DNA of 64,000 nucleotides, from positions 177,272 to 241,271 of the forward strand of contig BJGH01000001.1 of assembly GCA_014190355.1 (NCBI GenBank), given 5' to 3'. The stretch's first letter is position 1; every line of letters begins with the position of its first letter. Made by a program: the position numbers and the translations under genes. The notes under the pieces are model-generated. The model saw only the letters and a list, made by a program, of their open reading frames with translations. It did no database searches and was not told where the DNA came from. The DNA comes from Alphaproteobacteria bacterium. Its GTDB lineage: Bacteria; Pseudomonadota; Alphaproteobacteria; Rickettsiales; UBA1997. Shown piece by piece: positions 5,917 through 59,431 of the stretch.

Positions 5917-6960
5917 TTATTTGGAAGATGAGCTGTTTTTAAAAAAATTAGCACAAGAAATTAGTTGATCCATGACTAAATCAATTTCTTGTTTAGATTG
6001 ATCAAAAAATATATTGGTTTTTTTTCTTAGATTTGTTAAAGACTCACTTATTTGTGGAATATTTTGTAATTCTTTTAAAAATAACTCTCGATAATAATTC
6101 TTAATTTCTGTTAGTTTTGAAGAATTATCAATAATTTCTTGATAATTTGTAGCATAATCTAGGTAACCAAGAACAGCCCCAACTCCAATTTCATATGGCA
6201 AAATTATAATCAAAATTAGAATAAAATCTGCTCTATTTTTAAAAATAAAACCGTCACAATTTAGCTTATTACGAATTATTGATATATTTTCATATAAATT
6301 GGCTCCAACATAATTTATTATTGGATCTTTATTGCTTTGAATAAATTCATAACACAATTCAAATGAATTATCTTTTTCAGAAAATTTTAAAATATTTTTC
6401 CCTAAAAAGTTCGCTCTGGATAAATGGTAATTTAAAAATTTTTGAATGTTATCATAGATTGATGACTTTATCGCTAAATCGTCTTTATCATCACAATCAT
6501 TCTGGGAAATTATTTGCATAACTCTCGAGATCGTTTTAATAACTCTCTCTTCTTTCATATAAACTCTTCCCACGGTATTTTTTTTGCTTTTAAGAAACTC
6601 AAAAAATTTATCAAACTTAACAAGATATGGTAAGCGCTTTTCTAAATCAATTTGATTATTTATTAAAACAATATAAATACTGTTAAGCCATATTTCAAAA
6701 GCACTGTCTATATATAAATTATTTTCATTAACTATTTGGGCAATTGCATTGAACTTGATGAGAGTATCCTGATTTGGATCATTAATAATTATTGTATATT
6801 TTTTAAAAAAATTAAAAATTTTATCGCTAGGGATTGAGTCCTCATTGATAAGAACACTAAGTATTTTAAAAAACTCAATGTTTTTAATTCTTAAAATATC
6901 TTTATAACTAGGATATTGATTAGCTTCTATATAGTCTTGATTTTCTTGATTAGTTTGCAT
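5917..6960 (-). CDS. Hypothetical protein with one predicted TM segment
   Basis: 347-aa ORF with no overlapping alternative. One hydrophobic stretch (FILILIIILPYEIGVGAVLGYL). No recognisable motif. Confidence 0.5.
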   Translation of the reverse strand: MQTNQENQDYIEANQYPSYKDILRIKNIEFFKILSVLINEDSIPSDKIFNFFKKYTIIINDPNQDTLIKFNAIAQIVNENNLYIDSAFEIWLNSIYIVLINNQIDLEKRLPYLVKFDKFFEFLKSKKNTVGRVYMKEERVIKTISRVMQIISQNDCDDKDDLAIKSSIYDNIQKFLNYHLSRANFLGKNILKFSEKDNSFELCYEFIQSNKDPIINYVGANLYENISIIRNKLNCDGFIFKNRADFILILIIILPYEIGVGAVLGYLDYATNYQEIIDNSSKLTEIKNYYRELFLKELQNIPQISESLTNLRKKTNIFFDQSKQEIDLVMDQLISCANFFKNSSSSK

Positions 6961-11515: not shown

Positions 11516-12595
11516 TTACCTAGGAAGCTCGACAATTGGAAGTTGAAGCTCACTACTTTTAGAATTTTTTGTTTTACTATCAATAGTATTAAGATTTTTT
11601 GGTACTTCAAAAGTTTCTACAGGTTTTGAATAGTCATTGACCTGATTTACATTTTTTGTCTCAGGCTGGGGATCTTTTTTTTCCTGATCTAAATCATTAT
11701 CTAAAATTGCTTCCACAATTGGAGGATTATTATTCTTAACAACCTGATCTTGAATTCCAGGCTGCTGAATAATTATTTGTTGGTTTTGATTAGGATTAAC
11801 TAGAATTTGTTGATTGTTATTTGCTATTTTATTTTGTGCAGGATTAATATTAGATTGAACATCGGGATTTTGTGTATTATTATTTATTTGAGATTCATTA
11901 CTAGTGTTTACCTCAGGTTGTTTGGGATAATATTGAATTGATTTCATTCGATTTTTGTCAATAGGACCAGAATAATAATATCGCTCATCAAAATTAGTTA
12001 TATAATTTCTACCTTGAGAAATTTCGGGATATTTTTTGTTATAAACTTCGCCATAATTATTATTACTAAAATTATTATGAGCTATCACTGTATCACCGTT
12101 TTCACTATATTTTGCAACAGTTAAATTAGATCGATTTTCAATCATTCTTTTAATCAAATCCTGCTGATATTTTTTTGCCTTGGCAACTCTTTTCTTTTTT
12201 GCCTCTGACATAAGATCTATTTCTTGTTGACGCATTTCATCAAAAACTTTTTTATATTCCAAAACTGCAACACATTTTTCATTATTCCAACACTTTCCTT
12301 TACCACAATCACATCCAAAAGTTCGGGCTTGACTGCATACCGCAAATTCATCAAACTTAGAATAGCAATCATCTGCACAACCATTTCCAAATTCATGCCA
12401 TACTCCCTTATTACTCTCGCAAATTTCTCTGTTATCAAAAGAGGTTTTCCTTAAACCAGCTCCTTGAACTTGATTTAAAAAAACTAATAAAATTACTAAA
12501 GAAAAAAATAAAAAATTATTTTGTCTAAAAAAAAACCCATGCCAAAAAATTTTCAAGCCTATAAAAATTTTAAGAGCGGTATTGGTTATTTTCAC
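11516..12595 (-). CDS. Hypothetical secreted or membrane-anchored protein: Cys-rich module plus Q/N-rich tail
   Basis: 359 aa. An N-terminal hydrophobic signal or anchor is followed by a ~50-aa block with 8 Cys (CESNKGVWHEFGNGCADDCYSKFDEFAVCSQARTFGCDCGKGKCWNNEKCV). The rest is a long Q/N/P-rich low-complexity region. No family recognised. Confidence 0.55.
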   Translation of the reverse strand: MKITNTALKIFIGLKIFWHGFFFRQNNFLFFSLVILLVFLNQVQGAGLRKTSFDNREICESNKGVWHEFGNGCADDCYSKFDEFAVCSQARTFGCDCGKGKCWNNEKCVAVLEYKKVFDEMRQQEIDLMSEAKKKRVAKAKKYQQDLIKRMIENRSNLTVAKYSENGDTVIAHNNFSNNNYGEVYNKKYPEISQGRNYITNFDERYYYSGPIDKNRMKSIQYYPKQPEVNTSNESQINNNTQNPDVQSNINPAQNKIANNNQQILVNPNQNQQIIIQQPGIQDQVVKNNNPPIVEAILDNDLDQEKKDPQPETKNVNQVNDYSKPVETFEVPKNLNTIDSKTKNSKSSELQLPIVELPR

Positions 12596-12643: not shown

Positions 12644-13750
12644 TTAATTAGCCAATATTTTATCTAATTCTTCAACAACTTTATCAGCCATTTGAGAACA
12701 TGATACAGTTTTTTCATTAGGCTTTGCGATATCAGCAGTTCGGTAACCCAGATTTAATACATTTGCAACAGCTTTTTCAATTGCATCAGCCTCATAATTA
12801 TAATCAAAAGAATATCTAAACATCATCGCTAAACTTAAAATAGTTGCTAAAGGATTGGCAATATTTTTACCGGCAATATCAGGAGCAGAACCATGAACTG
12901 GTTCATACAAAGCAAATTGTTTACCATTGCTTTGTTTTGCTCCAAGAGATGCTGAAGGAAGCATTCCCAATGATCCAGTCAACATCGAAGCAATATCTGA
13001 CAAAATATCGCCAAACATATTACCCGTAACCAATACATCAAATTGCTTTGGATTTCTAACCAACTGCATTGCACAATTATCAACATACATATGACTTAAA
13101 TTAATATCAGGATATGATTCTTTTTGGATTTTAATAACTTCTTCACGCCACATCTCAGTAGTTTCAATTACATTGGCTTTATCCACTGAACAAAGTTTTT
13201 TACTGCGAATTTTTGCCAAATCAAAAGCAACTTTAGCAATTCTTTGGACTTCTTTAGAGTTATAAGTCATAGTATTGATTCCTTGCTTTGAACCATCTTC
13301 TAAAGTTTTAACTCCTCTTGGTTCGCCAAAATATAAATCACCCGTTAACTCTCGAATAATCATGATGTCAAGGTCTGCAACTATTTCTCTTTTTAAAGTT
13401 GAGCTATCGGCTAAGGCATTAAAAACTTTTGCTGGACGAAGATTAGCAAATAATTCAAGATCTTTACGAATTCCTAACAATCCTCGCTCTGGACGATGTT
13501 TATATTCTAAACTTTCCCATTTTACACCTCCAACCGCTCCAAGTAAAATAGCATCTGCTTCTTTGGCTAATTTTAAAGTTTCCAAAGGATAAGGTGTTTG
13601 ATATTGATCATAAGCAATTCCCCCTAAAAGAGCATCTTGAGTTGAGAATTTTTTATCAGTATGATCATTAAAAAACTTAATTATTTTTTGAGTTTGATTA
13701 ACAACCTCTGGTCCTATTCCATCTCCTTGGATTAATAATATTTTTTTCAT
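12644..13750 (-). CDS. leuB: 3-isopropylmalate dehydrogenase (beta-decarboxylating dehydrogenase family)
   Basis: 368 aa. Motifs [43 protein letters not shown] and [26 protein letters not shown] match LeuB closely. Confidence 0.85.
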
Positions 13751-14872: not shown

Positions 14873-15475
14873 ATGCACCCCCTTCTTAAAATTATTCTAA
14901 AGCTTATTGCAATTATCTTTACCATCTTTATTTGCCTTCAGTCATATAATTTAGCTTGTAACAATTTTTTTAAATGCAGTCCAATTTACCTAGACTATAT
15001 ATTTTACCAATCATACTCAAACAAAGTAGAAAATTTTTTTATTAACACCAATTTTTTATTAATAAATAACAACAAAAATGTTGAAGTTGTATTAGATTAT
15101 GATAAAAAAAATTCTATCTTAGGTAAAATAGTTAAAGTTAATTTAGTTTATAATAATTTAACTAAAAATAATATAGTCGTAAAAACTAAAATTGAATATG
15201 ATTTTGAAAGTATTAAAGAACTTATAAAAATGTTGAAATGCCCATGTAAAAGCAAAATAAAATTAAAACCCTTTGAAAAGAAAATGGTTGAAATGGAATT
15301 TTTTTATATTTACCCAAGAAATAAATTGATTAGAAATAAATTTATAGAAGAAATTCAAAAAAGACCAAATCTTATAAGAAATGAGGATATTAATATCAAT
15401 AACAACTTAATAAACCAAAAAAAATCATTTAATATTACTAACTTAACTAATAATATGAAAATTGTAATTTATTAA
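14873..15475 (+). CDS. Membrane-anchored hypothetical protein, possibly a divergent Cox11/CtaG-like copper chaperone
   Basis: 200 aa with an N-terminal TM helix. By eye it is colinear with Cox11: TM, then Y..C, then a beta-rich middle. The segment LKCPCKSKIKLKPFEKKMVEMEFFYIYP sits where Cox11 has HCFCFEEQ.L...E...MPV.FYIDP. The call rests on this one pattern. Confidence 0.4.
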   Translation: MHPLLKIILKLIAIIFTIFICLQSYNLACNNFFKCSPIYLDYIFYQSYSNKVENFFINTNFLLINNNKNVEVVLDYDKKNSILGKIVKVNLVYNNLTKNNIVVKTKIEYDFESIKELIKMLKCPCKSKIKLKPFEKKMVEMEFFYIYPRNKLIRNKFIEEIQKRPNLIRNEDININNNLINQKKSFNITNLTNNMKIVIY

Positions 15476-15615: not shown

Positions 15616-17694
15616 TTAACGACGATTTAATTGAGCAACACCAGACTTGTATAATTGACGGATTGATTTAGCTGCTACTCCAATCAAGATTGCTGCAACA
15701 ATTGGCAAAACTATTGGCAAAATTTTTACACCATTATCATTGTCATCTGAAGATTTGCAAACTGATTGATCTTGTTCGAAATGTGAAGAATTGGTGATAT
15801 TTTCAATTTTTTTAACATGACTTATTAAGTTATTAATTTTTTCAATATTCTGGGTACCATCAGTTTTATTTAGAACATCACCTAAAAGCTTGGAGAGTGT
15901 TTTAATATTGTTAGGAGTTATGTCTTTTGGATCGATATAACAATCTTTCTTTTCTGAACCAAAAAAATTTGAAAAATTCTTAACATTTTCTACCATGTAG
16001 TTAAAAAAGTTTTTTTCTGAAGATTGTTCGCAGAATTCTTTTATTTTTTTGTTAACATCTGCTAGACTTACAGCTGATGTATTTGCTTCAAAGTTATATG
16101 TAGTTCCATTTTTAAAATCAGTAACCCAAATATTGCTATTCCTGCAATATGTTATCGAAACAGGTAAAATAGGATTTGGTGAGGGAGTAGCGGGAGGAAA
16201 GAATGGCTCACTGGAATCAGGTTTTACCAATGTTATATTTGAACATGACACAATTTCTTGACCATCTTTGGTTTTTAAATCATAAGTATTTCTCATAAGA
16301 TTATAATCTAAAACAACTGCTTCTTCTTTTAAAGGCAATTTATAAACTCCATCTACTAAACTTAAAGCGCTAACAGTTCCATTGGATGATGTTAGAGTTC
16401 CATTTGAAATATTTAAAAATTCCGATAATCCAGATTTATGATTAGTTAAATTTAAACCCGCTATTTCACCACCACTATCCAAAACTCTTTCAAATGAATA
16501 ACTAAGATTGCCGTTGTTTTTAAGAGTTAGTAAATTATTTGAAACCGTACAAGAATAATTATCATATAATATTAAACTTGAGTTTGAAAAATTAGTAACT
16601 GGTAATGGAGTAAAAGTAATGGGAGTAGTTGAATTATATGAAGTTGCATTGGGCGGAAAATTAGGTGCAGATATTAAATTTGAACAAAGAAAATTATCGC
16701 TCGTATCATAAACTGTATTGTAAACATATTCTTGTTCAATTCCATTTAATGATTTATTAATTAATCTAAATTGATATTTTAAATTACTTTTGGTAAAATT
16801 ATAAGAATTTGTTATTGCATCATATGAAGGATTTAAAGATCTTAGTGTATTTAGAATAACTGGTCTAGGATCAGAAAAATCAAGATTATAAGATGTTGTT
16901 TCGCCTCTTCCTTCAAAAAATTCAATTTTTTGTGAATTATATGATAGATAGAAAATTTTAGCCAACTGGGTAACTCCCTGACTAATAATAAAACTTTGCA
17001 AAACTGATGATGCTGTTTCGCCATTTTGACATGAAACTGCCCCTGATTGACGGGTTTTAAAAGATTCTTTAAAAACAACTGGTTTTGATTGACCTTCAGA
17101 CCAAATAGTTTTAGAGGATACAATAGATAAATCCTTATCTAGGTTTTGTGATAAATCATCTTGCGATAGAATTTGACGCGAAGCTTTAAAAACCTTATCC
17201 TTAGAACCCATAGAAGGACTACTAACCTCAGATCTAATAACATCAGAACCAGTACTTATAGGATTTGAATTTCTGAGATCAAGAGGGATATCTTTTCTTT
17301 GCAATTTAGGCTCTTCATAGCCAGAAGGATATTTAATTTTGTGACTTGATAAAACATCGGTATCAGTTGTTGTATTTTTACTAGAATCAGTAGTTTTTGA
17401 TTTAAGTTGGCTAATTCTTGATGTTTCAGCGACTTCCTTTTTATTTAATAATTTACCCTCTCTTGCTCTTTTTAATTTATTATACTTACCCACTTTTGTC
17501 CGATATTTTCTTCTATCATTACCATGGTTATTTTGAGATGAAAAAAAACTAGCATATAAAGTTGCCAGAGCTATTTGACCCCCCAAATCAGGTAAATTGG
17601 GACCTCGCGAATCCATTCGAAAATTATAAAGACCTTGGGAATCTTGTTGAAAATCATAAGAACCCTTACTAATATTTTTTCCATTTAATGGCAT
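15616..17694 (-). CDS. Large hypothetical tail-anchored protein (S/T/N-rich)
   Basis: 692-aa uninterrupted ORF with no N-terminal signal. It has a basic patch (RRKYRTKVGKYNKLKRAREGK) and a single C-terminal TM (ILPIVLPIVAAILIGVAA) followed by a basic tail. No SxxK, SxN or KTG penicillin-binding motifs are present. Confidence 0.6.
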   Translation of the reverse strand: MPLNGKNISKGSYDFQQDSQGLYNFRMDSRGPNLPDLGGQIALATLYASFFSSQNNHGNDRRKYRTKVGKYNKLKRAREGKLLNKKEVAETSRISQLKSKTTDSSKNTTTDTDVLSSHKIKYPSGYEEPKLQRKDIPLDLRNSNPISTGSDVIRSEVSSPSMGSKDKVFKASRQILSQDDLSQNLDKDLSIVSSKTIWSEGQSKPVVFKESFKTRQSGAVSCQNGETASSVLQSFIISQGVTQLAKIFYLSYNSQKIEFFEGRGETTSYNLDFSDPRPVILNTLRSLNPSYDAITNSYNFTKSNLKYQFRLINKSLNGIEQEYVYNTVYDTSDNFLCSNLISAPNFPPNATSYNSTTPITFTPLPVTNFSNSSLILYDNYSCTVSNNLLTLKNNGNLSYSFERVLDSGGEIAGLNLTNHKSGLSEFLNISNGTLTSSNGTVSALSLVDGVYKLPLKEEAVVLDYNLMRNTYDLKTKDGQEIVSCSNITLVKPDSSEPFFPPATPSPNPILPVSITYCRNSNIWVTDFKNGTTYNFEANTSAVSLADVNKKIKEFCEQSSEKNFFNYMVENVKNFSNFFGSEKKDCYIDPKDITPNNIKTLSKLLGDVLNKTDGTQNIEKINNLISHVKKIENITNSSHFEQDQSVCKSSDDNDNGVKILPIVLPIVAAILIGVAAKSIRQLYKSGVAQLNRR

Positions 17695-25973: not shown

Positions 25974-26214
25974 AAAAAAAACTACTACAGGATCACTTCT
26001 GATCGCAATAGCTTTTGGAAAATATAAAGAAGATGGCGCGCCTTATACTGGCACAAAAGACGGAGGAAGAGTTTATATAGCCTACTTAAACCATCCGCTA
26101 CTATTCAGAGTAGGATTAGCTTTATTAGTTTTTGGATTTGGTTTTCAATTATTGGAAAAGTTAGAAATATTAAAACTAATAAATTCCTTAGCATACTAAC
26201 ATTAAGATTAGAAT

Positions 26215-27483
26215 ATGGACTTCAAATTTTTATCAAAATTACTCCAAAACTATTTGGTAAGATTGGGTAACACATCCAAAGAAAATAAACTTGCGTATCT
26301 ATTATTAATAATAGTTTTTTTTGTATGCTATAACACAGGATTGGTAGCGCTTTTTAGTGCCTTAATTGCAATTTATGCAATATTTTTTAATACCATGAGC
26401 AATGAATACAACGCTAGAAGTGCACTTATTAGCGATTTAACCAATAAAGCAACTGACCATTTAAAAGCATTTAAGGATGGTACTTTGGCATTGGAAGCAA
26501 TGCAAATGCAACTTTTACCTAAACCTCATTACTTTCAAATTTATGATGTTTTAACCTATAAACCTAAAAAAACTGAATATCGAGAAAAAGAACTAATAAT
26601 TAAGATTGATAACAGAACTGGTATAGTCTCAAAATTTAAAATTTTCATAGCCAATAAAGGTAAATGCATAGAAAATTACACAGAAATAGATGAAAAAGAA
26701 TATTTAGGAAAAGGTCAATTTGGAGAACCAGTAATACAATGGATCAAAATTTATGAAATGCTTGATATCCGAGCATACTCAGCAGAATTTATTAAAAAAT
26801 ACATTGTAGGAATGAAAAAATCAGGACTAAAAAAAGACGAAGTAGGAGTCAAAGCAAATCTACAAGGTATATGGCTTCATGGCGCAAAATTAGAAGAAGC
26901 AAACTTGGAGGAGGCAAACTTACAGGGAGTTAGTTTGCAAGGAGCGGATCTATCAGGAGCAAATTTATATAAAGCCAATTTGCAAGAATCATATTTACAG
27001 GGAGCAATTCTACAAGAGGCTAATTTACAAAAAACAAACTTAGAGAGAGCTAATTTACAAGAAGCTAATTTAATAGTAATGCAATTACAGGAAGCGGATT
27101 TATCAATGGCAAATTTAAGAAAAACAAATTTAATATTTTCTAATTTACAAGGAGCGGATTTAAATAAAACGGATTTCAGAGAAGCGAAATTTCGACAAAC
27201 AAATTTTAAAAAAGCTATAATTGGCCTTATTAATGAAAAAATAACACTTGAAGAAGTTTTATTAAATCCTGATTTGTTTGAAAAACACAAAAAAGACTTA
27301 CCTAGATTTTCTAGTCTTGTTCAATTAGAGGGAGCAATATTTCATGAAGATTGCGGCATAATTGATGGAAAAATAAAAAATGCATTAATTGAAGCAGAAA
27401 AATGGAAGCTGGAGCATGAAAAGAAAAATGGATTGAGTCCTGATTTTTGTGATTATCGCCTAACTTATCTCGACACAAAATAA
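26215..27483 (+). CDS. Membrane-anchored pentapeptide-repeat protein
   Basis: 422 aa with two N-terminal TM helices. From about aa 215 to 335 it has ~24 consecutive A(N/D)LxG/E-type pentapeptide units (ANLQGIWLHGAKLEEANLEEANLQGVSLQGADLSGANLYKANLQ...). Confidence 0.85.
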   Translation: MDFKFLSKLLQNYLVRLGNTSKENKLAYLLLIIVFFVCYNTGLVALFSALIAIYAIFFNTMSNEYNARSALISDLTNKATDHLKAFKDGTLALEAMQMQLLPKPHYFQIYDVLTYKPKKTEYREKELIIKIDNRTGIVSKFKIFIANKGKCIENYTEIDEKEYLGKGQFGEPVIQWIKIYEMLDIRAYSAEFIKKYIVGMKKSGLKKDEVGVKANLQGIWLHGAKLEEANLEEANLQGVSLQGADLSGANLYKANLQESYLQGAILQEANLQKTNLERANLQEANLIVMQLQEADLSMANLRKTNLIFSNLQGADLNKTDFREAKFRQTNFKKAIIGLINEKITLEEVLLNPDLFEKHKKDLPRFSSLVQLEGAIFHEDCGIIDGKIKNALIEAEKWKLEHEKKNGLSPDFCDYRLTYLDTK

Positions 27484-27620
27484 CGCATCTAGTTCTCAGG
27501 AAAGTATAAATATAAATTTATAGTCATAAGCAATCTTGGGGGTAAAAATGGGGGTAAATAGGTTTTTTATAAAACCATAAATCCTTTATTTACAAATCTC
27601 CAAAGCCTACAATATGACTG

Positions 27621-27641
27621 CCGTCACTCCCGCCACTTACT
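27621..27641 (+). repeat. Direct repeat copy 2 (att-like duplicate of the tRNA-Asp 3' end)
   Basis: CCGTCACTCCCGCCACTTACT is a 21/21 match to 25953-25973. No tRNA body lies upstream of it. Confidence 0.85.
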
Positions 27642-28112
27642 TTAAAAAAACCACTATATTTTTTCTCGTTTTTATTGTTAATAAACTAAAAAAATTTCAA
27701 AAATCCTTTTGCAAATTTTCCTTCCCCATATTTATAATATTCATCAGCAAAAAATTACTTAATTATCCTTGGCAACCTTGTTCGAGCTCTTAAATAATAT
27801 TGGCAATCAAGCATAAATTTAAGACTTAGTAAAATCATGACCAAGCTTGATTTATATGATTAAGATAGATAATCATAAGCAATTTGTGTTGATTGAAAAT
27901 ATATCAAACTTAAATCAAAGCATTTTGTAATTAAGAAAAAATATAGCATTAATCACAAAATAAATTATAACAAAATATAAAGAAAAAAAATGCCACTTCC
28001 AATCAACCAAAATCAGCAACCATATTCCAATTACATGGAAAACTATATAAAAAAACTAAAATACACCAAATATTTAATATTAAAAACACGCAAAACACTA
28101 ACAAACTAAACT

Positions 28113-29120
28113 ATGTCAAATAACCAACAAAACCAACCCTCCCCGCAAATCCTACTTTATCAAAGCGAGGATGGCAAAATTAAACTTGATGTTGAATTAC
28201 AGCAAGAAACCGTCTGGCTTAATCAAGAACAAATGGCGGTTTTGTTTGGCAAGGCAAAATCTACCATCAACGAACATATTCAAAATATTTATACTGAAGG
28301 AGAGCTTTTAGAAAGCCAGTCCATGAAGAAATTCGGAAATTCCGAATTTCAACAAAAAGCCACAAATTATTACAACCTTGATGTCATAATTTCTGTTGGT
28401 TATCGGGTAAAATCAAAGCAAGGCACACAATTTCGCATTTGGGCGACTAATCGTTTAAAAGAATATATTGTTAAAGGTTTTGCACTAAATGATGATCGCT
28501 TTAAAGCTGGCAAGTCGATGAATTATTTTGATGAATTGCAAGAAAGAATTCGTGAAATTAGGCTTTCTGAACGCTTCTTCTATCAAAAAATTAAAGATAT
28601 TTACGCAACCAGCATTGATTATGACGCCAAAGATGAAAAGACAATTGAATTTTTTCAAATTGTCCAAAACAAGCTTTTATGGGCAATAAGCAAGCAAACT
28701 GCAGCAGAGTTGATTTACAAAAGGTCTGATGGCAATTTGCCTTTTATGGGCATGAAATCTTATGACAAAAAAACCGAAAAATCGATCACTAAAAAAGATT
28801 CTGAAATTGGCAAAAATTATTTAGATGAAAGCGAAATTAAATTGCTTGGGCTTTTGGTTGAGCAATATTTGGCATTTGCCGAAACGATGGCAAATCAAAG
28901 AATTGCAATGTATATGAAAGATTGGATTGCAAAACTTGATTCAATCTTGCAACTTAACGGCAGAGAGATTTTAAAACATGCAGGAACAATAACTCACAAA
29001 ATTGCAGTTGAAAAATCAGGAAACGAATATCAAAAATTTAAAGAAATTCAAAAAAAACTAGAAAAACAAGAAAGCTTGAAAGAGCTCGAAAATGATTTAA
29101 TGAAAATTAAAAACTTATGA
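28113..29120 (+). CDS. RhuM-family (virulence-protein RhuM-like) protein
   Basis: 335 aa. The N-terminal pattern ILLYQSEDGKIKLDVELQQETVWLNQEQMAVLFGKAKSTINEHIQNIYTEGEL...YNLDVIISVGYRVKSKQGTQFRIWATNRLKEYIVKGFALND matches the RhuM family as I recall it. Confidence 0.75.
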   Translation: MSNNQQNQPSPQILLYQSEDGKIKLDVELQQETVWLNQEQMAVLFGKAKSTINEHIQNIYTEGELLESQSMKKFGNSEFQQKATNYYNLDVIISVGYRVKSKQGTQFRIWATNRLKEYIVKGFALNDDRFKAGKSMNYFDELQERIREIRLSERFFYQKIKDIYATSIDYDAKDEKTIEFFQIVQNKLLWAISKQTAAELIYKRSDGNLPFMGMKSYDKKTEKSITKKDSEIGKNYLDESEIKLLGLLVEQYLAFAETMANQRIAMYMKDWIAKLDSILQLNGREILKHAGTITHKIAVEKSGNEYQKFKEIQKKLEKQESLKELENDLMKIKNL

Positions 29121-29800
29121 CTAACAAAGAAGATTTTTATGAAAAAAATAATTCATCAATATTCGACCCAAAAGGAACCAATTGGATTGATGATATTGAA
29201 ATTTTATTAAACGATAAGCATTTTGTTAAACATTATCAAGATAATTTTTTTTCTCTTTACGCATCAGGCTATAAAGATTCAGCAAATATACTTTGCGAAC
29301 ATATCATAGAAAAAAAACGAACTTTAAATCGATCCGGCATAGTTTATCCAATAATTTATCTTTACAGACATTATTTAGAACTTCAGTTAAAAAACTTAAT
29401 TTTATTAAGTAATAAAGCTATTCTTCTAATTAATAACAACTCCTTTGATGATAGCTATAAAAAAATAATACTTTCTCATAATCTTATAGATTTATACGAT
29501 TTATGTTTAAAAAATCTAAAAAACTTATCAGAAGAAATTGGGGAAGAAGAATCTTTAATTAACGAAAATGAGGATTTTTCAATGCTAAAAAATATTATTA
29601 AAGAATTTGATAAACATGACAAATTATCTGAAGCTTTTAGATATCCGGTGGATAAAAAAAATAATTTTAACTTACAAAAAATTAATAACATTAACATAAA
29701 AAAAATATACGATATGATTAATGAGGGCACTAAAATATTAGATGGAGCTGAAGGCTGGCTTGATCATCAAATTTCTGAAATTTCTAAGAATCATAGTTGA
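29117..29800 (+). CDS. Hypothetical protein translationally coupled to the RhuM-family gene
   Basis: 227 aa. Its ATG overlaps the RhuM-like stop (ATGA). It looks helical and has locally conserved-looking motifs YLYRHYLELQLKN, LSHNLIDLY and AFRYPVDK. No family recognised with confidence. Confidence 0.55.
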   Translation: MTNKEDFYEKNNSSIFDPKGTNWIDDIEILLNDKHFVKHYQDNFFSLYASGYKDSANILCEHIIEKKRTLNRSGIVYPIIYLYRHYLELQLKNLILLSNKAILLINNNSFDDSYKKIILSHNLIDLYDLCLKNLKNLSEEIGEEESLINENEDFSMLKNIIKEFDKHDKLSEAFRYPVDKKNNFNLQKINNINIKKIYDMINEGTKILDGAEGWLDHQISEISKNHS

Positions 29801-29834
29801 TTTTAAAAATAAAAAATTTTTTTAAGTTGATATT

Positions 29835-30146
29835 TTGGCAGCCAAAGGAGATTTAGGTTTTGAAAATCCTAAAATTTGTATTCAAGTAAAATCGGGCTCA
29901 GCGGTTGGAATTGATATTTTAGATCGCCTTTCAGGAACAATCAAAAAAGTTAAAGCTGATTTTGGTTTGCTGGTTTCTTGGGAAGGTTTCAAAGGAAGTA
30001 TTAAAGAAGAAAAGAAAAATGAATTTTTTGCAATCAGGCTTTGGGAGCAAAAAGAACTGGTTGAAGAATTTTTAAAACATTATCATAAACTAGATGAAGA
30101 GATAAAGTCAGAAATCCCTTTGAAGCAAATCTTGATTTATTTCTAA
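29835..30146 (+). pseudogene. 3' fragment of an Mrr-like restriction endonuclease (Mrr_cat family)
   Basis: Only 103 codons, opening with TTG. GDLGFENPKICIQVKSGSAVGIDILDRLSGTIKKVKADFGLLVSWEGFKGSIKEEKKNEFFAIRLWEQKELVEEF...EIPLKQIL corresponds to the C-terminal half of ~300-aa Mrr-type enzymes. The N-terminal wHTH and the upstream catalytic Asp region are missing. Confidence 0.6.
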
Positions 30147-30369
30147 TGATGAATAATTTTAACTAAAATAAATTATGGAGGTGTAATTGCGGTCAGTAGC
30201 TATAAAATTCGAATTATAGATTTTTTTTAATATTTTTTTATTGATAAAAACAATTCCAAAAAAGCTGGCAGGCTAGAAAAAATCTTTTGCAATACTAACA
30301 GATTTAGTAAAATCTATCTTATTTATTTTTAAATTAAAATTTATAAATTATCACAAAACCTCTGCAAAT

Positions 30370-31686
30370 TTATTGAATTTCACACCCTTTGCCTCTCCTT
30401 CTCAATAAACCAGTACAAGAATTTCTTCCTTTGGATGTTACAGGTAAACTAGAACCATCTACCTGGTCATTTGTATTATCGCTCAAACTAAAACCCCTTG
30501 CAATCTGCGATTGAGTAGTGTTATCACAATTTTCTAAAACAATCTGGCCATCTCTTAATAATGAAGAATTAACTTGATTTTCTTGAGGATTATGAGTGTT
30601 CTGAAGATTATGGTTTAAGGGATTTTGATGAGATTGGATAGACTCTAAAGCATTTTCTTCTAAATCACTTTTACCAGAACTTATAATAGCTAATTCACAG
30701 ATAATTTTAGGTTCTTTATCTTCAATTCCAGGTTTTTTAAGTCCCCGTTCAATTTGATGGGATTCAGATCTTGATTGATTAGCTATTTTACTTTCCGCTT
30801 TACTTGCCGCGACACTATTAAATGCCGATACTCTATCTCTTACACTTCCTAACTCTTTTTCATCTATACCCTGAAGAGCGCTACCATTTTGGTTTGTCGA
30901 AGGTTTGATTGATGATCGCATTGGAAGAGTCGGCATAATTCTTCTACCATATTGATTGACAGTTCGCTCATTTCTATTTAAATAGGTTTCGTGACAAGTT
31001 TTTATTTTTTTTAAAATTGTTTTTAAATCTTCTAAATTATCGATTTCAATTTTTTGGGGATTAGATCTATATTGAGCCGCTTCACAAAAGAAAATTCTTA
31101 ATTTATCATCTTCAGTATCGTAATTTACAAAAATTGAAGATCTGCTTGAATTTTCATTAAACTCCATTTCAACAATTTTTTCTTTAACTAAAAATGATAA
31201 ACTATTTTCAGTTCCAACAAAAATAAATTCTTTAAGAGTTTTAGAAGTTTTCTTTAGATTTTCAATCGCCAAATCTTTAAAATATTTTTGCAATTCTTTT
31301 AATTCAACATCACCATCATGATGTTTGGGCATGACTTCATCGTCAGCTAAACTATCAATTTTTATTTGTCTTTGATCAATAGCATCAATAAATAAAGCTG
31401 TTATTTGAGCAATTCTTTCCTTATCCGATATATGAGACTTAACTTTATCAACATCAAAACTAAATATTTCAAAATTGTTATCATCAGTAATTTCAATTTG
31501 ATATCTCTCGCCATTATCTATTAAAGCCATGGCTTTTCGCCCAAGTCTTTCAGTTATCCCGCATTCAATTTCACTTACAAAAGGATCTTTGAAAAAACCT
31601 TTTTCACTATTAGATTTAGTATTGTCTTCAATGAAATTATTGATTTGCTGATAATATGGATTGTTTGCAATATTTGAGCTTTTCAT
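30370..31686 (-). CDS. Hypothetical protein ending in a polybasic CaaX-like box
   Basis: 438-aa ORF with no recognisable domain. The C-terminus, read codon by codon from the minus strand, is ...CTGLLRRRGKGCEIQ-stop. Confidence 0.6.
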   Translation of the reverse strand: MKSSNIANNPYYQQINNFIEDNTKSNSEKGFFKDPFVSEIECGITERLGRKAMALIDNGERYQIEITDDNNFEIFSFDVDKVKSHISDKERIAQITALFIDAIDQRQIKIDSLADDEVMPKHHDGDVELKELQKYFKDLAIENLKKTSKTLKEFIFVGTENSLSFLVKEKIVEMEFNENSSRSSIFVNYDTEDDKLRIFFCEAAQYRSNPQKIEIDNLEDLKTILKKIKTCHETYLNRNERTVNQYGRRIMPTLPMRSSIKPSTNQNGSALQGIDEKELGSVRDRVSAFNSVAASKAESKIANQSRSESHQIERGLKKPGIEDKEPKIICELAIISSGKSDLEENALESIQSHQNPLNHNLQNTHNPQENQVNSSLLRDGQIVLENCDNTTQSQIARGFSLSDNTNDQVDGSSLPVTSKGRNSCTGLLRRRGKGCEIQ

Positions 31687-32167
31687 AAAAAATGAAATTA
31701 ATTAATTTTTGTCACATATAAAATAATCTTTAAAATAATTAAGATTTTTATATTAAAAAAACTAACCTAATTATGATTTATTTATTAAATAAATTTTTTC
31801 ATAAATAAATTATTTTTAATTAGAAGTCAACAATTTATTTTTTTCTTTTAGATTTTTATCTTTAGGTTAATTTTTAAATGCCAAATTTAATAAAAAATAC
31901 AATCATTTTTTTTAATATTTTAACCATCTGCATCATTGATAACATGATTAAAATACATCGTTTGACTATTATAAAATTACCATCTTAAATTAATTCATCA
32001 AAACTAATAAATTTTTTAAGAAATATTTGATAAATGCTCTAAAACCATGATTTTGTATGGTTAGCTTCGTAAATCATTTTTAGTTTTTAAATATTTTTTT
32101 AAAAAATGTTAATTTTAAATTTTAAAAAAATTGCAAAAAATAGCTTTAATTATTACAACATTAAATT

Positions 32168-33394
32168 ATGAAAAAAATTTTAGTAAAAAATCCCATTGTT
32201 GAAATTGATGGCGATGAAATGGCTCGAGTCTTATGGCATATGATCAAAGAAAATTTGATTTTGCCTTATCTAGATCTTAACATAAAATATTATGATTTAG
32301 CCATTGAAAAACGCGATGCAAGTGAAGATCAAATCACTATTGATGCAGGTAATGCCATCAAGGAATATCAAGTTGGTATCAAATGCGCAACGATTACTGC
32401 TGACGAAGCTCGTCAAAAAGAATTTAATCTTAAACAAATTTGGAAATCGCCCAATGGCACAATTCGCAATATTTTAGATGGTACGGTGTTTCGTGAACCA
32501 ATTGTTTGCAAAAATGTTCCAAGACTTGTTAGTAATTGGCAAAACCCGATCATTGTTGGCAGACATGCTTTTGGCGATCAGTATAAAGCAACAGATTTTT
32601 TAATTCCAAGTGCTGGCAAATTATCAATTAAATTTGTTGGTGATGATGGAAAAGTTATAGAACATGAGGTTCATAAATTTAAATCAAGCGGTGTTGCCAT
32701 GGCAATGTATAATGTTGACGAGTCAATCACCGGCTTTGCTCGCTCATGTTTTAATTTAGCCTTGCAAAAAAATTGGCCATTATATCTTTCAACTAAAAAC
32801 ACTATCCTAAAAAAATATGATGGCAGATTTAAAACTATTTTCCAAGAAATTTTTGATAGCGAATTTAAAGAAAAATTTTCTTCACAAAATATCACCTATG
32901 AGCATCGCTTGATCGATGATATGGTAGCTTTTGCTTTGAAATCGAATGGCAATTTTATTTGGGCTTGTAAAAATTATGATGGCGATGTGCAATCTGATTC
33001 AGTTGCTCAAGGCTTTGGTTCGCTTGGTTTAATGACCTCAGTATTAATAACTCCCGATGGCAAAATTTTAGAAAGTGAAGCTGCTCATGGCACAATCACT
33101 CGTCATTATCGCCAATATCAAAAAGGCATTCCAACCTCTACTAACCCAATTGCTTCAATCTTTGCTTGGAGTCGTGGTTTGGCATTTCGAGGAAAAATTG
33201 ACCAAAATTTAGAGTTAATTGATTTTTGTCAAAAATTAGAAAAAGCTTGTGTGGCAAGTGTTGAATCAGGAAAAATGACTAAAGATTTAGCAATCTGCAT
33301 TAATCCCAACAAAGTTGAGCATGGCAAAGATTATCTTTACAGTGAAGAATTTATTTTAGCAATCAAAAAACAGCTTGAAAAATTTTTAAAATAA
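32168..33394 (+). CDS. icd: NADP-dependent isocitrate dehydrogenase (homodimeric, eukaryote-like type)
   Basis: 408 aa. Motifs [56 protein letters not shown] and [10 protein letters not shown] are present. Confidence 0.95.
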
Positions 33395-33460: not shown

Positions 33461-34561
33461 ATGCAAAATATTGTTAATATTGAAAAAAAAGCTAGAACAT
33501 TCACCCTTGCCTTGGTTGACAATGACGATACTTTGATTGATAAAAATGCCAATATCAATACACATTTACTTAATCATTTACGCAATCAAGTTAAACCAGA
33601 TTATTTAGCAATAATAACTGGCAGGATTTTAGGAACAGTTGCAAATATAAACCTCAATCCGCATTCGTCTTCTTTTTTTCGAAGGAAAATATCTAGATGG
33701 AAAAATCAATTAGCTTTTGATGAGGTATATCAGGGTTTAGCTAATTCTGAAGATTCTGAAAATCCTCCATTAAAAATTGATTTTGTTAGTACACCATATG
33801 ATTTAGCTCATGTAAAAGAAGATGATTGGAAAGGATTTTATCAAACAAAAATGAAACCTTTTGAAAATGCGGTAAAAAATGATACTAAAATAACTTCAAT
33901 TGAGCAAGCCAGAAGATATTGGAAACATAATGCAAGTAAATTACAATCTTCAGATGAAGAAAAATGTTTAGAAATTCTAACAGATGCTGATTTATCTAAA
34001 ACAAAATATGCTGAAATAGTTAATGCTTTTAAAGTAAATGATGATGTGAAGAATGAATTAATTAAATCTCATCCAGCTAATAAACCCTTAGCTAACAAAC
34101 ATCTGCAAACTCTGGATTTTTTAAGAAAACTTGCCAAAACAAAATCACTAGATAAAAAAAATTATGATGAGTTAGAAATTGCCATCTATGACGATAATAC
34201 AGAAAATATTCAAGCCATGAAAAATGCCGCTGGAGATTTTAATAAATTAACTGGGATTAGATTAAAATTTTTTACAGCAAATATTAAATATGGTGAAGGC
34301 AATAATATGTTTAGCCAAACTCAAAATGTTTGTGCTAAATTAACTACTAAATTAGATTCTTATCGAAGATTTTATATGGCATTATCTTATAAAGTATCAT
34401 CAAATTCAAGAGCTGAAAATAACCTATTTTATCGCTTAAAAAATAATTTTAGAGATAAATCTTCAAGATCACATGATCTTGTTTCAGGTGAACATGAAGG
34501 ATACCAAGGGCATAATTCTCAAAGTTTTCAACTTCCAACAACTCCCCCCTCAAATCAATAA
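33461..34561 (+). CDS. Hypothetical protein with HAD-phosphatase-like motifs (probably the 5' part of a split gene)
   Basis: 366 aa. It has LALVDNDDTLID (hhhhDxDxT, HAD motif I), LAIITGR (motif II-like) and IAIYDDNTENIQAM (motif IV-like). The ORF ends just after a C6 run at 34544-34549. Confidence 0.5.
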   Translation: MQNIVNIEKKARTFTLALVDNDDTLIDKNANINTHLLNHLRNQVKPDYLAIITGRILGTVANINLNPHSSSFFRRKISRWKNQLAFDEVYQGLANSEDSENPPLKIDFVSTPYDLAHVKEDDWKGFYQTKMKPFENAVKNDTKITSIEQARRYWKHNASKLQSSDEEKCLEILTDADLSKTKYAEIVNAFKVNDDVKNELIKSHPANKPLANKHLQTLDFLRKLAKTKSLDKKNYDELEIAIYDDNTENIQAMKNAAGDFNKLTGIRLKFFTANIKYGEGNNMFSQTQNVCAKLTTKLDSYRRFYMALSYKVSSNSRAENNLFYRLKNNFRDKSSRSHDLVSGEHEGYQGHNSQSFQLPTTPPSNQ

Positions 34562-35237
34562 AACTCGTTATGATTTTAAATTAACAACCCATCAAGAAAC
34601 TAACCCAATTTCACAAGCAATTAAAGATAACAATCAGCAAGTTTATTTTAGCGAATTGGCAAAAATAATTTTAGCAACTAAAAACCAATTTGATAAAGGT
34701 AAAGGCGAAGGAGAAAAACTTGATTTAGATGACATAACCAAAATAATAACCATGGCAATTGCCCTAAAAGGCTTTAGCGAAAAATCTGATCGAGATCTTG
34801 AAGATAATTGGCAGGCAATTGAAGGGAATCCTCAATTAAGACCGAGTGATTTAAGAAGATTTGGAGCAATTTTTCAAAAACAAATTAGTAGTTATGCATT
34901 AACAGGCAATCCAAATGCCACAAGACCTGAGGTAGGTATGCGCTTAAAAAGAATCGACATAAATTTCTTGCCTGAAATTATGAAACAAGCCGAAATTCAA
35001 TTACAATCAGGAGCTAAAGATTCGGATATTACCGATTTTAATAATAGTCTTAAAGATAATTTACAAAAATTAAACGAATTAAAAATTACCAACGCTTCTC
35101 AAGATCAATCAGCCAAGGACCAAGTAAAAAATGAATTTTATGATCAATTATTAATTCCAAATAAATCCCTATTAAGACCATTAGCTTCAAGTATAGTGCA
35201 AAAAAATAACCGCCCGCATAAAAAAAACAAATGTTAA
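34473..35237 (+). CDS. Hypothetical protein (probably the out-of-frame continuation of 33461-34561)
   Basis: This ORF overlaps the upstream ORF by 89 nt in another frame. Removing one C from the C6 run joins ...QLPTTPP to QINKTRYDFKL..., giving a protein of about 590 aa. Its stop abuts the rmuC stop with no spacer. Confidence 0.45.
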   Translation: MILFQVNMKDTKGIILKVFNFQQLPPQINKTRYDFKLTTHQETNPISQAIKDNNQQVYFSELAKIILATKNQFDKGKGEGEKLDLDDITKIITMAIALKGFSEKSDRDLEDNWQAIEGNPQLRPSDLRRFGAIFQKQISSYALTGNPNATRPEVGMRLKRIDINFLPEIMKQAEIQLQSGAKDSDITDFNNSLKDNLQKLNELKITNASQDQSAKDQVKNEFYDQLLIPNKSLLRPLASSIVQKNNRPHKKNKC

Positions 35238-41345: not shown

Positions 41346-42149
41346 ATGCCAACAAAAACACTCCTTCAAATTGCATCATTCAATGGTAAAATTGAAGATG
41401 TGACAAATTTAATCAAGAATAATGTAGATGTTAATGAAAGCGACAATGTAAACTTGGAAACCCCAATTTTCTTGGCCTCGCAAAATGGTCATTTGGAAAT
41501 CGTTAAGAAGTTAATTTTGGCAAATGCAAATATTAATCTATCAAATAAATATAAATATGATCCGCTTATGGTAGCATCTTATTATGGGCATGAAGAAGTT
41601 GTTAAGGAGTTAATTAATTCTGGTGCTGATCCTAATAAAAAAAATATTTTTGGCCAATCGCCTTTATTTCTTGCTACTAAAAGGGGAAACTTAAAAATTG
41701 TCAGAGAATTAATTAAAGCTGGTGCTAATGTTAATGAAGAAAATAATGACAAAGAAAATCCTCTTTATGAAGCGATAAAAAGATTTAATGAAGAGGCTAG
41801 AAAGTTAACAATTTGCGACCAAGAAAAAAGCACATTAGATGTAATCGAATTAGAAAAAACACAATATTTAGAAATTGCTAAAACCCTAATTTCAGCGAAT
41901 GCTGATGTAAATCTTCCAAATAAATATGGAGAAACTCCGCTCCTGCTTGCAATGTTAAGTGGAAATGAAGAAATTATAAAAGCATTTGACCCGCATGAAG
42001 ATCCTGATAAATTAAATTTAGAGGAATTATATAAAGGATTACTAACCTTTGCTCCATTCCCTTCTCCATCTAACTCCCCCACCAACTCTCCTTCTCGAAC
42101 TCCATCTAATACTCGAACTCCATCCAATACTTCTCATGAAAAAAAATAA
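41346..42149 (+). CDS. Ankyrin-repeat protein with an S/P/T-rich C-terminal tail
   Basis: 267 aa with at least 5 ANK units (ETPIFLASQNGHLEIVKKLILANANIN; DPLMVASYYGHEEVVKELINSGADPN; QSPLFLATKRGNLKIVRELIKAGANVN; ETPLLLAMLSGNEEI). The tail is PFPSPSNSPTNSPSRTPSNTRTPSNTS. Confidence 0.85.
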   Translation: MPTKTLLQIASFNGKIEDVTNLIKNNVDVNESDNVNLETPIFLASQNGHLEIVKKLILANANINLSNKYKYDPLMVASYYGHEEVVKELINSGADPNKKNIFGQSPLFLATKRGNLKIVRELIKAGANVNEENNDKENPLYEAIKRFNEEARKLTICDQEKSTLDVIELEKTQYLEIAKTLISANADVNLPNKYGETPLLLAMLSGNEEIIKAFDPHEDPDKLNLEELYKGLLTFAPFPSPSNSPTNSPSRTPSNTRTPSNTSHEKK

Positions 42150-58588: not shown

Positions 58589-58810
58589 AATAAAATTTTT
58601 TTAGCAAATAAAAGTTGGAATTATTAAAAGTAAAACTTTATTTCTTTGCTCAAAATAATATCGAGCATTTTATTTTAATTTACTTTTCAATAATAAAAAA
58701 TTGATTAAGTAATCTGTTTTAAAATATAACGATGATGGTTAAATTTGTTCATCTTATAGTTTGATATGTTTCAGTAAGTAAGTTAGTTATTAACTAATTT
58801 ATTGAAATCT

Positions 58811-59431
58811 ATGTCAAAAACTAATGAAACTAAAAGCATTAAAAGCTCTTTATTTAAAAGATTACCTCACCTTGCAGAATCAAGAACTCATGGTATTGCA
58901 AGACACCTGATAGAGAAAAAAAAATTAACTAGATTAGAAAAAACTACCAATCCAGCAATGACAAAAGTTGGATTTTCAAAAACTGATTCATCAAATATAA
59001 AACCAATGGATATTGAACCAAGCCAAGAAATTGATGAAGGTTCAGCTGGAATTTATCAAGAAATTGATGAAGGTTCAGCTGGAATTTATCAAGGAATTGA
59101 TGAAGGTTCAGCTGGAATTTATCAAGAAATTGATGAAGGTTCAGCTGGAATTTATCAAGGAATTGATGAAGGTTCAGCTGGAATTTATCAAGGAATTGAT
59201 GAAGGTTCAGCTGGAATTTATCAAGGAATTGATGAAGGTTCAGCTGGAATTTATCAAGGAATAAGTGACGATTTTGCAAAAATGAGTTTTCAAAAAGAAA
59301 CGCAATTTACTCAATCTCATTTAGCTCAATCTCATTTAGCTCAATCTCATATTGCACCACAAACTGCAACATCTTCATCTTTAGTCAATAAAGATAAAGT
59401 AAATAATCCTAAAAAAACCATCGGCAGTTAA
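58811..59431 (+). CDS. Hypothetical tandem-repeat protein
   Basis: I prefer the ATG at 58811 (MSKTNETK...). The protein has seven 11-aa units Q(E/G)IDEGSAGIY, then three SHLAQ-type units. No family recognised. Confidence 0.6.
   Translation: MSKTNETKSIKSSLFKRLPHLAESRTHGIARHLIEKKKLTRLEKTTNPAMTKVGFSKTDSSNIKPMDIEPSQEIDEGSAGIYQEIDEGSAGIYQGIDEGSAGIYQEIDEGSAGIYQGIDEGSAGIYQGIDEGSAGIYQGIDEGSAGIYQGISDDFAKMSFQKETQFTQSHLAQSHLAQSHIAPQTATSSSLVNKDKVNNPKKTIGS
59024..59254 (+). repeat. Seven head-to-tail 33-bp repeats inside the CDS
   Basis: The unit is CAAG[A/G]AATTGATGAAGGTTCAGCTGGAATTTAT. The only variable base is position 5, with pattern A,A,G,A,G,G,G. A partial eighth unit follows to about 59265. Confidence 0.95.
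59312..59356 (+). repeat. Three 15-bp tandem repeats inside the CDS
   Basis: CAATCTCATTTAGCT occurs twice, followed by the variant CAATCTCATATTGCA. Confidence 0.85.

Follow-up and report, generated by a model that had tools for sequence, protein, structure and literature searches.

Hijacking of host prenylation has been documented in few pathogens, namely Legionella and Salmonella. The CaaX effectors of Legionella pneumophila, such as AnkB and Pel, are substrates of a type IV secretion system (T4SS), often orphans or equipped with eukaryote-like motifs, that are farnesylated or geranylgeranylated by the host and anchored through the modified Cys to host membranes. The Salmonella effector SifA is likewise injected and prenylated by the host at a C-terminal Cys motif. 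Salmonella GtgE carries a C-terminal Cys motif that is also prenylated by the host, which aids membrane association (PMC13423502). Here we analysed a candidate for a protein of this kind, encoded on the minus strand at positions 30370..31686 of contig stretch BJGH01000001.1 (the window, meaning the whole 64-kb stretch analysed), which ends in Cys-Glu-Ile-Gln (CEIQ). A previous interpretation of the DNA, hereafter the sequence-only reading, had described an orphan 438-aa protein with a polybasic stretch and a CEIQ end, and the open reading frame (ORF), its translation and exhaustive searches agree with that description; its appeal to Legionella as a precedent is equally sound, Pel and AnkB being users of host prenylation. 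Our preferred reading, held tentatively and at somewhat below an even chance, is that the target is a lineage-specific, fast-evolving protein that would be delivered into a eukaryotic partner cell, farnesylated and membrane-anchored there.

The ORF listing of the window (GC ~29%) contains a single ORF at the target position, with an ATG start and 438 codons plus stop. Its translated C-terminus reads ...SCTGLLRRRGKGCEIQ, or in longer form ...NSCTGLLRRRGKGCEIQ, and the protein is entered at NCBI as GDX35667.1, 'hypothetical protein LBMAG18_01780 [Alphaproteobacteria bacterium]', from a contig of 367 kb. No signal peptide or transmembrane segment was detected in it (maximum KD19 hydropathy = 0.87), and no paralogue is present within the window. 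The parts of the gene are as follows, where omega is the ratio of nonsynonymous (dN) to synonymous (dS) divergence and the sister allele is that of a closely related strain.

30370..31686, minus strand: complete ORF of the orphan protein GDX35667.1 / LBMAG18_01780 (omega 0.78 overall; probability of no stop under neutrality, P = 0.003)
30937..31686, minus strand: N-terminal region, aa 1-250, predicted alpha/beta domain (omega 0.37; 89% aa identity to the sister allele)
30853..31020, minus strand: hypervariable patch, aa 223-278, at the border of domain and tail (differences between the window and L084 alleles)
30433..30936, minus strand: Ser/Asn/Gln-rich tail of low hydrophobicity, aa 251-418 (omega 1.3-1.4; composition; coil in AlphaFold2)
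30385..30432, minus strand: basic pre-anchor segment KGRNSCTGLLRRRGKG, aa 419-434 (6 K/R, 0 D/E; second conserved Cys, C424)
30373..30384, minus strand: CaaX-type box Cys435-Glu-Ile-Gln438 (same in all three alleles; stop codon 30370-30372)

The CEIQ tail is, as far as published reporter data on the motif can tell, a chemically competent farnesylation signal in yeast. When all 8,000 CXXX sequences were screened by Ras recruitment in yeast (Stein et al. 2015, PMC4358939), CEIQ reached an enrichment factor (EF) of 11.58, compared with 11.80 for H-Ras CVLS and 7.81 for PRL-type CCIQ, the cut-off for a positive being EF >3, which 6.2% of CXXX sequences exceed; the exact value is noisy, since it derives from 58 reads at 37 °C and 2 at 25 °C (PMC4358939). 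In the independent Ydj1-reporter screen (Kim et al. 2023, PMC10320760), CEIQ, with an EF of 2.44, exceeded two controls known to be farnesylated, CASQ (1.61) and CKQQ (1.63), and the context-averaged heat-map scores of CEIQ are 5.53 (Ydj1) and 13.17 (Ras), against 1.95 and 0.85 for the non-substrate CEKA. Prenylation of CEIQ is also predicted by SVM-ESM-1b (p = 0.989; Berger et al. 2022, PMC9231725), by FlexPepBind at its stringent threshold, by PrePS in H-Ras context and by Freq, and its cleavage by both predictors of that step (p = 0.980; canonical class) (PMC9231725). The farnesyltransferase pattern that the sequence-only reading had recognised in the last four residues is thereby supported by both screens and by all predictors, and for PrePS, which it had proposed to run, the published call in H-Ras context is positive. 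These data come from yeast enzymes and reporter contexts, from which the native upstream sequence of the target and the algal enzyme may differ.

The same reading had regarded the Glu at the a1 position as atypical and possibly a sign of coincidence. This doubt falls away: a1 is promiscuous and a2 the main determinant by the rules of the Ras screen (PMC4358939), and Glu at a1 is no obstacle because both yeast screens and all predictors score CEIQ positive. An acidic a1 residue, more generally, does not rule out a CaaX box.

The box is preceded by a basic patch. Polybasic-plus-CaaX is an established membrane signal of K-Ras4B and Rho-type proteins, and the end of the target has the form of such a K-Ras4B-type bipartite signal, a Lys/Arg cluster free of acidic residues directly before the CaaX Cys. 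The segment KGRNSCTGLLRRRGKG before Cys435 holds 6 K/R and no D/E, with 4 K/R at -12..-5, which bears out the adjacent polybasic patch proposed from the letters alone. The residues before the box read RRRGKG, RRRGRG and RR--KG in the three alleles and remain basic although they differ by a K-to-R change and the loss of 2 codons. The second Cys of the segment, Cys424, could on a purely speculative view be an acylation site.

How often such an end arises by chance was estimated from the 283 ORFs of the window and related low-GC loci, in which Cys makes up 1.2-1.3% of residues. A Cys at -4 was found in 4 of the 283, two being SecA zinc-finger tails and one CDTE. The pattern C-x-[ILVM]-[SMQAC]-stop is expected at 6.7e-4 per protein, 0.03 per window and ~0.8 per 1,200-gene genome, so that the box alone is unremarkable genome-wide. 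At least four K/R at -12..-5 occur in just 3 of the 283 local tails, and box and basic patch are jointly expected only ~0.009 times per 1,200-gene genome, a combination that was chosen post hoc, though it matches a previously known bipartite signal. These figures bear directly on a rival explanation by coincidence, to which we give a considerable chance, though one well short of even. It holds that the target is a fast-evolving orphan with a bacterial-side role, for example cargo of a defence or mobile island or a young gene, which never meets a eukaryotic prenyltransferase, the CEIQ and the basic residues being accidental. The expectation for the box alone speaks for it, as does the frequency of Lys-rich basic tails in the AT-rich proteome by the looser criteria of S4TE, but the joint expectation is very low and, for membrane recruitment, CEIQ ranks within the best 6.2% of CXXX sequences.

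Searches for relatives of the target returned almost nothing. No Pfam family matched it at E < 0.1 and no PADLOC or PHROGs model matched it, and the best hit of a PDB profile search (E = 0.064, SAGA-associated factor 11) lies inside the low-complexity region; no relative of solved structure was found. A word-indexed search of 5.8 billion proteins recovered the target itself and one 432-aa relative, 79% identical, which was also the sole match when 1.84 billion cluster representatives were searched exhaustively with a HMMER profile. An alignment scan of 185,579 species-representative genomes detected no relative; scans of metagenome contigs with a peptide pattern and a degenerate DNA pattern for FFCEAAQYRSNPQKIEI detected no further one; and tblastn found no match in 50,697 phage and 72,556 plasmid records and only the sister allele in 83 fetched loci. 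The 90% cluster adds an allele, P0004, ending RRRGRGCEIQ. Three alleles are known, with DNA for all (the window, L001-L003 and L084), and three independent assemblies and samples all carry the gene intact. The target is a true orphan confined to one lineage. Since no eukaryotic homologue was found among the 1.84 billion representatives, the CaaX end would reflect short-motif mimicry, not a transferred eukaryotic gene.

The protein probably consists of an N-terminal domain and a long spacer. Two AlphaFold2 runs reached a mean pLDDT of 30.7 (2-sequence alignment) and 34.7 (N-terminal 250 aa only) and agree only on helices and beta-hairpins in aa 1-250, followed by mostly coil, the tail being coil except for one helix. 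Because the pLDDT is 31-35, matches to such models would be meaningless, and the N-terminal fold is left unassigned; no P-loop was found in this region. Residues of the tail are 72% polar or disorder-promoting and 23% hydrophobic, and the Ser/Asn/Gln-rich tail would be a flexible linker.

Comparison with the sister strain revealed how the target evolves. Between the two strains, identity is 94.8% in flanking DNA and 97.5-99.3% in housekeeping proteins, whose genes show dS of 0.14-0.24 and omega of 0.02-0.07. The target and its sister allele differ by a dS of ~0.12 and a dN of 0.097 (omega 0.78). This dN is 20-30 times that of housekeeping genes; in the same strain pair, TrpAB, ArgJ, isocitrate dehydrogenase (IDH) and RsmH have a dN of 0.003-0.012. 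Omega is split within the target, at 0.37 for aa 1-250 and 1.3-1.4 for the tail, and purifying selection is clear only in the N-terminal region. In simulations under neutrality, the absence of a stop among 123 substitutions in the whole target has P = 0.003 and that among 79 substitutions in the tail P = 0.031, and 4 of 4 indels between alleles are in-frame ((1/3)^4 = 0.012). Since the tail has no stops and all indels are in-frame, translation as far as the C-terminus is maintained while the tail sequence is free. Such an open but freely varying tail fits the pattern expected of a flexible linker ending in a functional terminal signal. The tail omega of ~1.3-1.4 would suit coincidence as well, but coincidence would have to account for the kept-open frame of the tail (P ~0.03; indels 0.012), which a functional C-terminus explains.

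Conservation of the box itself is of little help. The sequence-only reading had proposed to look for it in homologues, and CEIQ is indeed kept in all three alleles, but the comparison has almost no power: the alleles are recent (dS ~0.12), and neutral retention has P = 0.29 by simulation, which leaves coincidence untouched. Between alleles there is moreover no nucleotide difference in the final 6 codons or in ~80 nt of 3' untranslated region. Conservation between near-identical strains should in general not count as evidence. Elsewhere in the gene, the window and L084 alleles, otherwise identical, differ in 20 codons (18 nonsynonymous, 2 synonymous; 21 nt in all), 15 of which fall in aa 223-278; this hypervariable patch could be a recombination tract or the site of local diversifying selection.

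A decaying or spurious ORF with a functionless tail would be another explanation for rapid change, and a very improbable one. An overall omega of 0.78 and a tail omega of at least 1 are in its favour, together with the confinement of homologues to one species-level lineage, the lack of a confident AlphaFold2 fold and a frameshift in a neighbouring orphan of the window genome (33461-35237). Against it stand the omega of 0.37 in the N-terminal 250 codons, a 438-codon frame in 27% GC DNA that has taken 123 substitutions without a stop (P = 0.003), indels that are in 4 of 4 cases multiples of three, and the intact gene in three independent assemblies. A pseudogene reading of the target was rejected on the N-domain omega together with the stop and indel tests.

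The basic end of the target admits a further explanation, namely that the protein is a secreted effector whose basic C-terminus is a VirB/VirD4-type translocation signal, the terminal Cys being unlipidated or its lipidation irrelevant. We consider this improbable. S4TE uses four tail criteria derived from alphaproteobacterial T4SS effectors, and the target passes all four, with 6 basic residues in the last 25, a net charge of +4, a hydrophobic residue at -4 and a global hydropathy of -328. Substrates of the Agrobacterium VirB/D4 system share the Arg-rich C-terminal consensus R-x7-R-x-R-x-R, and the arrangement R421-x7-R429-R-R-G-K of the target tail, which we take to resemble it, counts on the same side, as does the near-universal presence of a T4SS in Rickettsiales. 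SecA and FixO of the window, however, meet the same four S4TE criteria, so their specificity is poor. A translocation signal also gives no reason for a top-ranking farnesylation box at the very end of the protein, and the two roles are not exclusive, Legionella CaaX effectors being translocated with the box intact.

Our preferred reading, farnesylation inside a eukaryotic partner, depends on the lifestyle of the source bacterium. IDH-anchored and SecA searches showed that the relatives of the window form a large uncultured freshwater radiation of metagenome-assembled genomes (MAGs) labelled Rickettsiales, 'Rickettsiales bacterium UBA1997' or Alphaproteobacteria, and the source genome probably belongs to family UBA1997, judging from these similarities. 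According to a 2023 preprint (10.1101/2023.01.31.526412), UBA1997 is found in freshwater only and retains amino-acid biosynthesis; by CARD-FISH (fluorescence in situ hybridization with catalysed reporter deposition) its members are small, extracellular rods found attached to cryptophyte algae at the cell surface; and the family is a 'transition stage' lineage that lacks the ATP/ADP translocase of the intracellular families. Genes of the window (TrpAB, ArgJ, LeuB, AroA, IspH, cbb3 oxidase and an ankyrin-repeat protein) are consistent with the description of UBA1997. The 'likely intracellular bacterium' assumed in the sequence-only reading is therefore unsupported, since UBA1997 is an extracellular epibiont retaining amino-acid biosynthesis and the window carries TrpAB, ArgJ, LeuB and AroA. 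That the source bacterium is eukaryote-associated appears plausible from its inferred family, and the effector interpretation, drawn from the sequence, is plausible too.

Some observations on placement stand apart from this. The eukaryote-type NADP IDH (32168-33394, plus strand) is 72-76% identical to proteins of Bacteroidota (Dyadobacter, Chitinophagaceae) and 75-85% identical to those of other Rickettsiales-labelled MAGs, scarcely above Bacteroidota; a gene nearly as close to Bacteroidota as to its supposed kin points to horizontal transfer long ago. Another member of the Iso_dh family, at 12644-13750, is probably LeuB. Public MAGs named 'Rickettsia typhi' (some 'Rhizobium sp.'), to which loci L005, L006, L014, L016, L017, L021, L024, L025 and L035 belong, come from freshwater lakes, have 31-36% GC and carry Trp and Arg biosynthesis genes; they are clearly mislabelled, so labels are unreliable for placing the clade.

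The target lies within a strain-variable block of the window. In L005, the closest genus-level relative with synteny, TrpB-TrpA-ArgJ-...-5-formyltetrahydrofolate ligase is followed by 1.5 kb and then IDH, and the target and its neighbours are absent. The block on one side of the target is a decaying defence-type island (25987-30280) with these members:

26215-27483: pentapeptide-repeat protein, in the decaying island
28113-29120: RhuM, intact, PADLOC candidate PDC-S05
within 25987-30280: 227-aa ORF with no assignment
29835-30146: Mrr-like PDC-S02 remnant, last ~100 residues only

In the sister strain the island has suffered three deletions, by which the pentapeptide gene, the 227-aa ORF and the Mrr fragment were lost, and RhuM is an 82-aa fragment. 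The sister strain keeps the target intact despite this loss and decay of adjoining defence genes. For coincidence, the neighbourhood cuts both ways: RhuM (PDC-S05), the Mrr/PDC-S02 remnant and the absence of the whole block from L005 would suit a bacterial-side role, but the target has no PADLOC, PHROGs, phage or plasmid match, is on the strand opposite the defence genes and is intact where those genes have been deleted. Being on the opposite strand and matching no defence or phage model, the target is not demonstrably part of the defence island. Two specific roles were considered and set aside, an anti-phage defence component (no PADLOC match, strand opposite RhuM and Mrr, retained where defence genes are lost) and phage or plasmid cargo (no PHROGs match, no tblastn match in phage or plasmid records). 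A scan of 30100-32200 for promoters and terminators is uninformative, promoter-like sites being scarcer than in shuffled sequence and terminators absent.

Other genes of the window deserve a mention. The orphan downstream of IDH (33461-35237, plus strand) runs unbroken over at least 555 aa in the sister strain (L002 1-1665) and is frameshifted in the window near 34536-34543 into pieces of 366 aa and 254 aa, by pseudogenization or assembly error. No gene of the region evolves faster (67% aa identity, omega ~1.7). The string DNDDTLID in its N-terminus may be a haloacid dehalogenase (HAD)-like DxDxT motif, though there is no Pfam match, and its downstream piece ends ...RPHKKNKC, a basic run followed by Cys as last residue. 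An ankyrin-repeat protein of 267 aa (41346-42149, plus strand; Ank E = 2.7e-37; low-complexity tail TPSNTRTPSNTSHEKK) lies ~10 kb from the target, and, as a typical eukaryote-interaction scaffold, would be a second effector candidate in the window. Five ORFs of 200-692 aa without a Pfam match at E < 1e-5, at 5917-6960, 11516-12595 and 15616-17694 (minus strand) and at 14873-15475 and 58802-59431 (plus strand), may be additional lineage-specific proteins.

In the mechanism that we propose, the target would be exported into the host most plausibly via a VirB/D4-type T4SS, a route suggested by the near-universality of the system in the order, where it is 'almost fully conserved' (Castelli et al. 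2024). Host farnesyltransferase would then add a C15 lipid to Cys435 of CEIQ, after which removal of the aaX tripeptide and methylation of the exposed C-terminus would probably follow. Together with the adjoining RRRGK patch, the farnesyl group, as part of a two-part signal of K-Ras4B/RhoA type, would keep the protein at negatively charged membranes of the host, and the long flexible tail would be the spacer that presents the N-terminal domain. For this target we infer the presence of a T4SS, the translocation, the lipidation and the membrane reached. The target has traits that are effector-like in a generic sense, as an orphan with no signal peptide or transmembrane segment, with a disordered tail, a high dN, a place in a strain-variable island and an intact gene where adjoining defence genes were lost or decayed.

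Several points weigh against farnesylation in a partner cell. On the side of the signal, a CaaX-like box alone arises about once per genome by chance, the Ras-screen EF of CEIQ comes from few reads (2 at the permissive temperature), and the conservation of CEIQ carries no weight, because the alleles are recent, the end and 3' untranslated region are identical and neutral retention has P = 0.29. The S4TE tail criteria, which SecA and FixO satisfy as well, were not counted in its favour, and the N-terminal domain is, from the models, without assignable fold or activity. On the side of the genome, the target adjoins defence-island genes, no secretion-system gene was found within the 64-kb window and no second CaaX protein among the 283 ORFs, two absences that coincidence would also predict. 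On the side of the organism, the UBA1997 placement is based on MAG labels, which are inconsistent, and on IDH and SecA similarity, of which that of IDH is nearly as high to Bacteroidota as to Rickettsiales-labelled MAGs; and UBA1997 is described as extracellular, effector injection not being documented for the family.

The fullest version of our reading is that an extracellular, alga-attached member of Rickettsiales injects a young, fast-diversifying effector, which is lipidated by the algal farnesyltransferase and pinned to the host membrane by a K-Ras-like signal; we regard this as unlikely. If it is true, host prenylation would for the first time be seen to be hijacked within Rickettsiales, and also for the first time by a protist epibiont that is not intracellular; eukaryotic motif mimicry of this form would then have arisen before intracellularity, in a lineage regarded as intermediate between free-living and intracellular life. 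It would extend the phenomenon from the pathogens to environmental Rickettsiales living on algae and would give an uncultured group of otherwise obscure host interaction a concrete effector candidate.

The eukaryotic proteins nearest in design are K-Ras4B, RhoA/Rac1 and the PRL phosphatases (CCIQ/CCVQ), which share with the target a flexible linker, an Arg/Lys cluster and a CaaX box with aliphatic a2. We liken the target tail to that of RhoA (...RRGKKKSGCLVL). Gln at X directs modification by farnesyltransferase, and CEIQ ranks above PRL-type CCIQ in the Ras screen (11.58 vs 7.81). Unlike those anchors, the N-terminal domain of the target is no GTPase or phosphatase (no P-loop, no Pfam match), and the basic patch of the target, with 4 K/R in 6 residues, does not reach the length of the one in K-Ras4B. 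The T4SS (rvh) effectors of Rickettsiales, ankyrin-repeat proteins for instance, resemble the target in being lineage-specific, fast-evolving and hydrophilic with positively charged C-termini, whereas the target has no repeat domains; a literature search found no report of a Rickettsiales effector using a CaaX box. Salmonella SifA and GtgE are delivered by type III secretion in enteric animal pathogens and are unrelated in sequence to the target, and SifA is geranylgeranylated and S-acylated. The Legionella CaaX effectors, which have no sequence relationship with the target either, act from within a vacuole through Dot/Icm (type IVB), whereas the lineage of the target is probably an extracellular algal epibiont with a VirB/D4-type (rvh) system, if any; their translocation and lipidation are demonstrated, whereas the target is known from sequence alone. 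What the Legionella CaaX effectors and the target have in common is that each is a bacterial protein without a eukaryotic homologue that ends in a C-terminal CaaX box.

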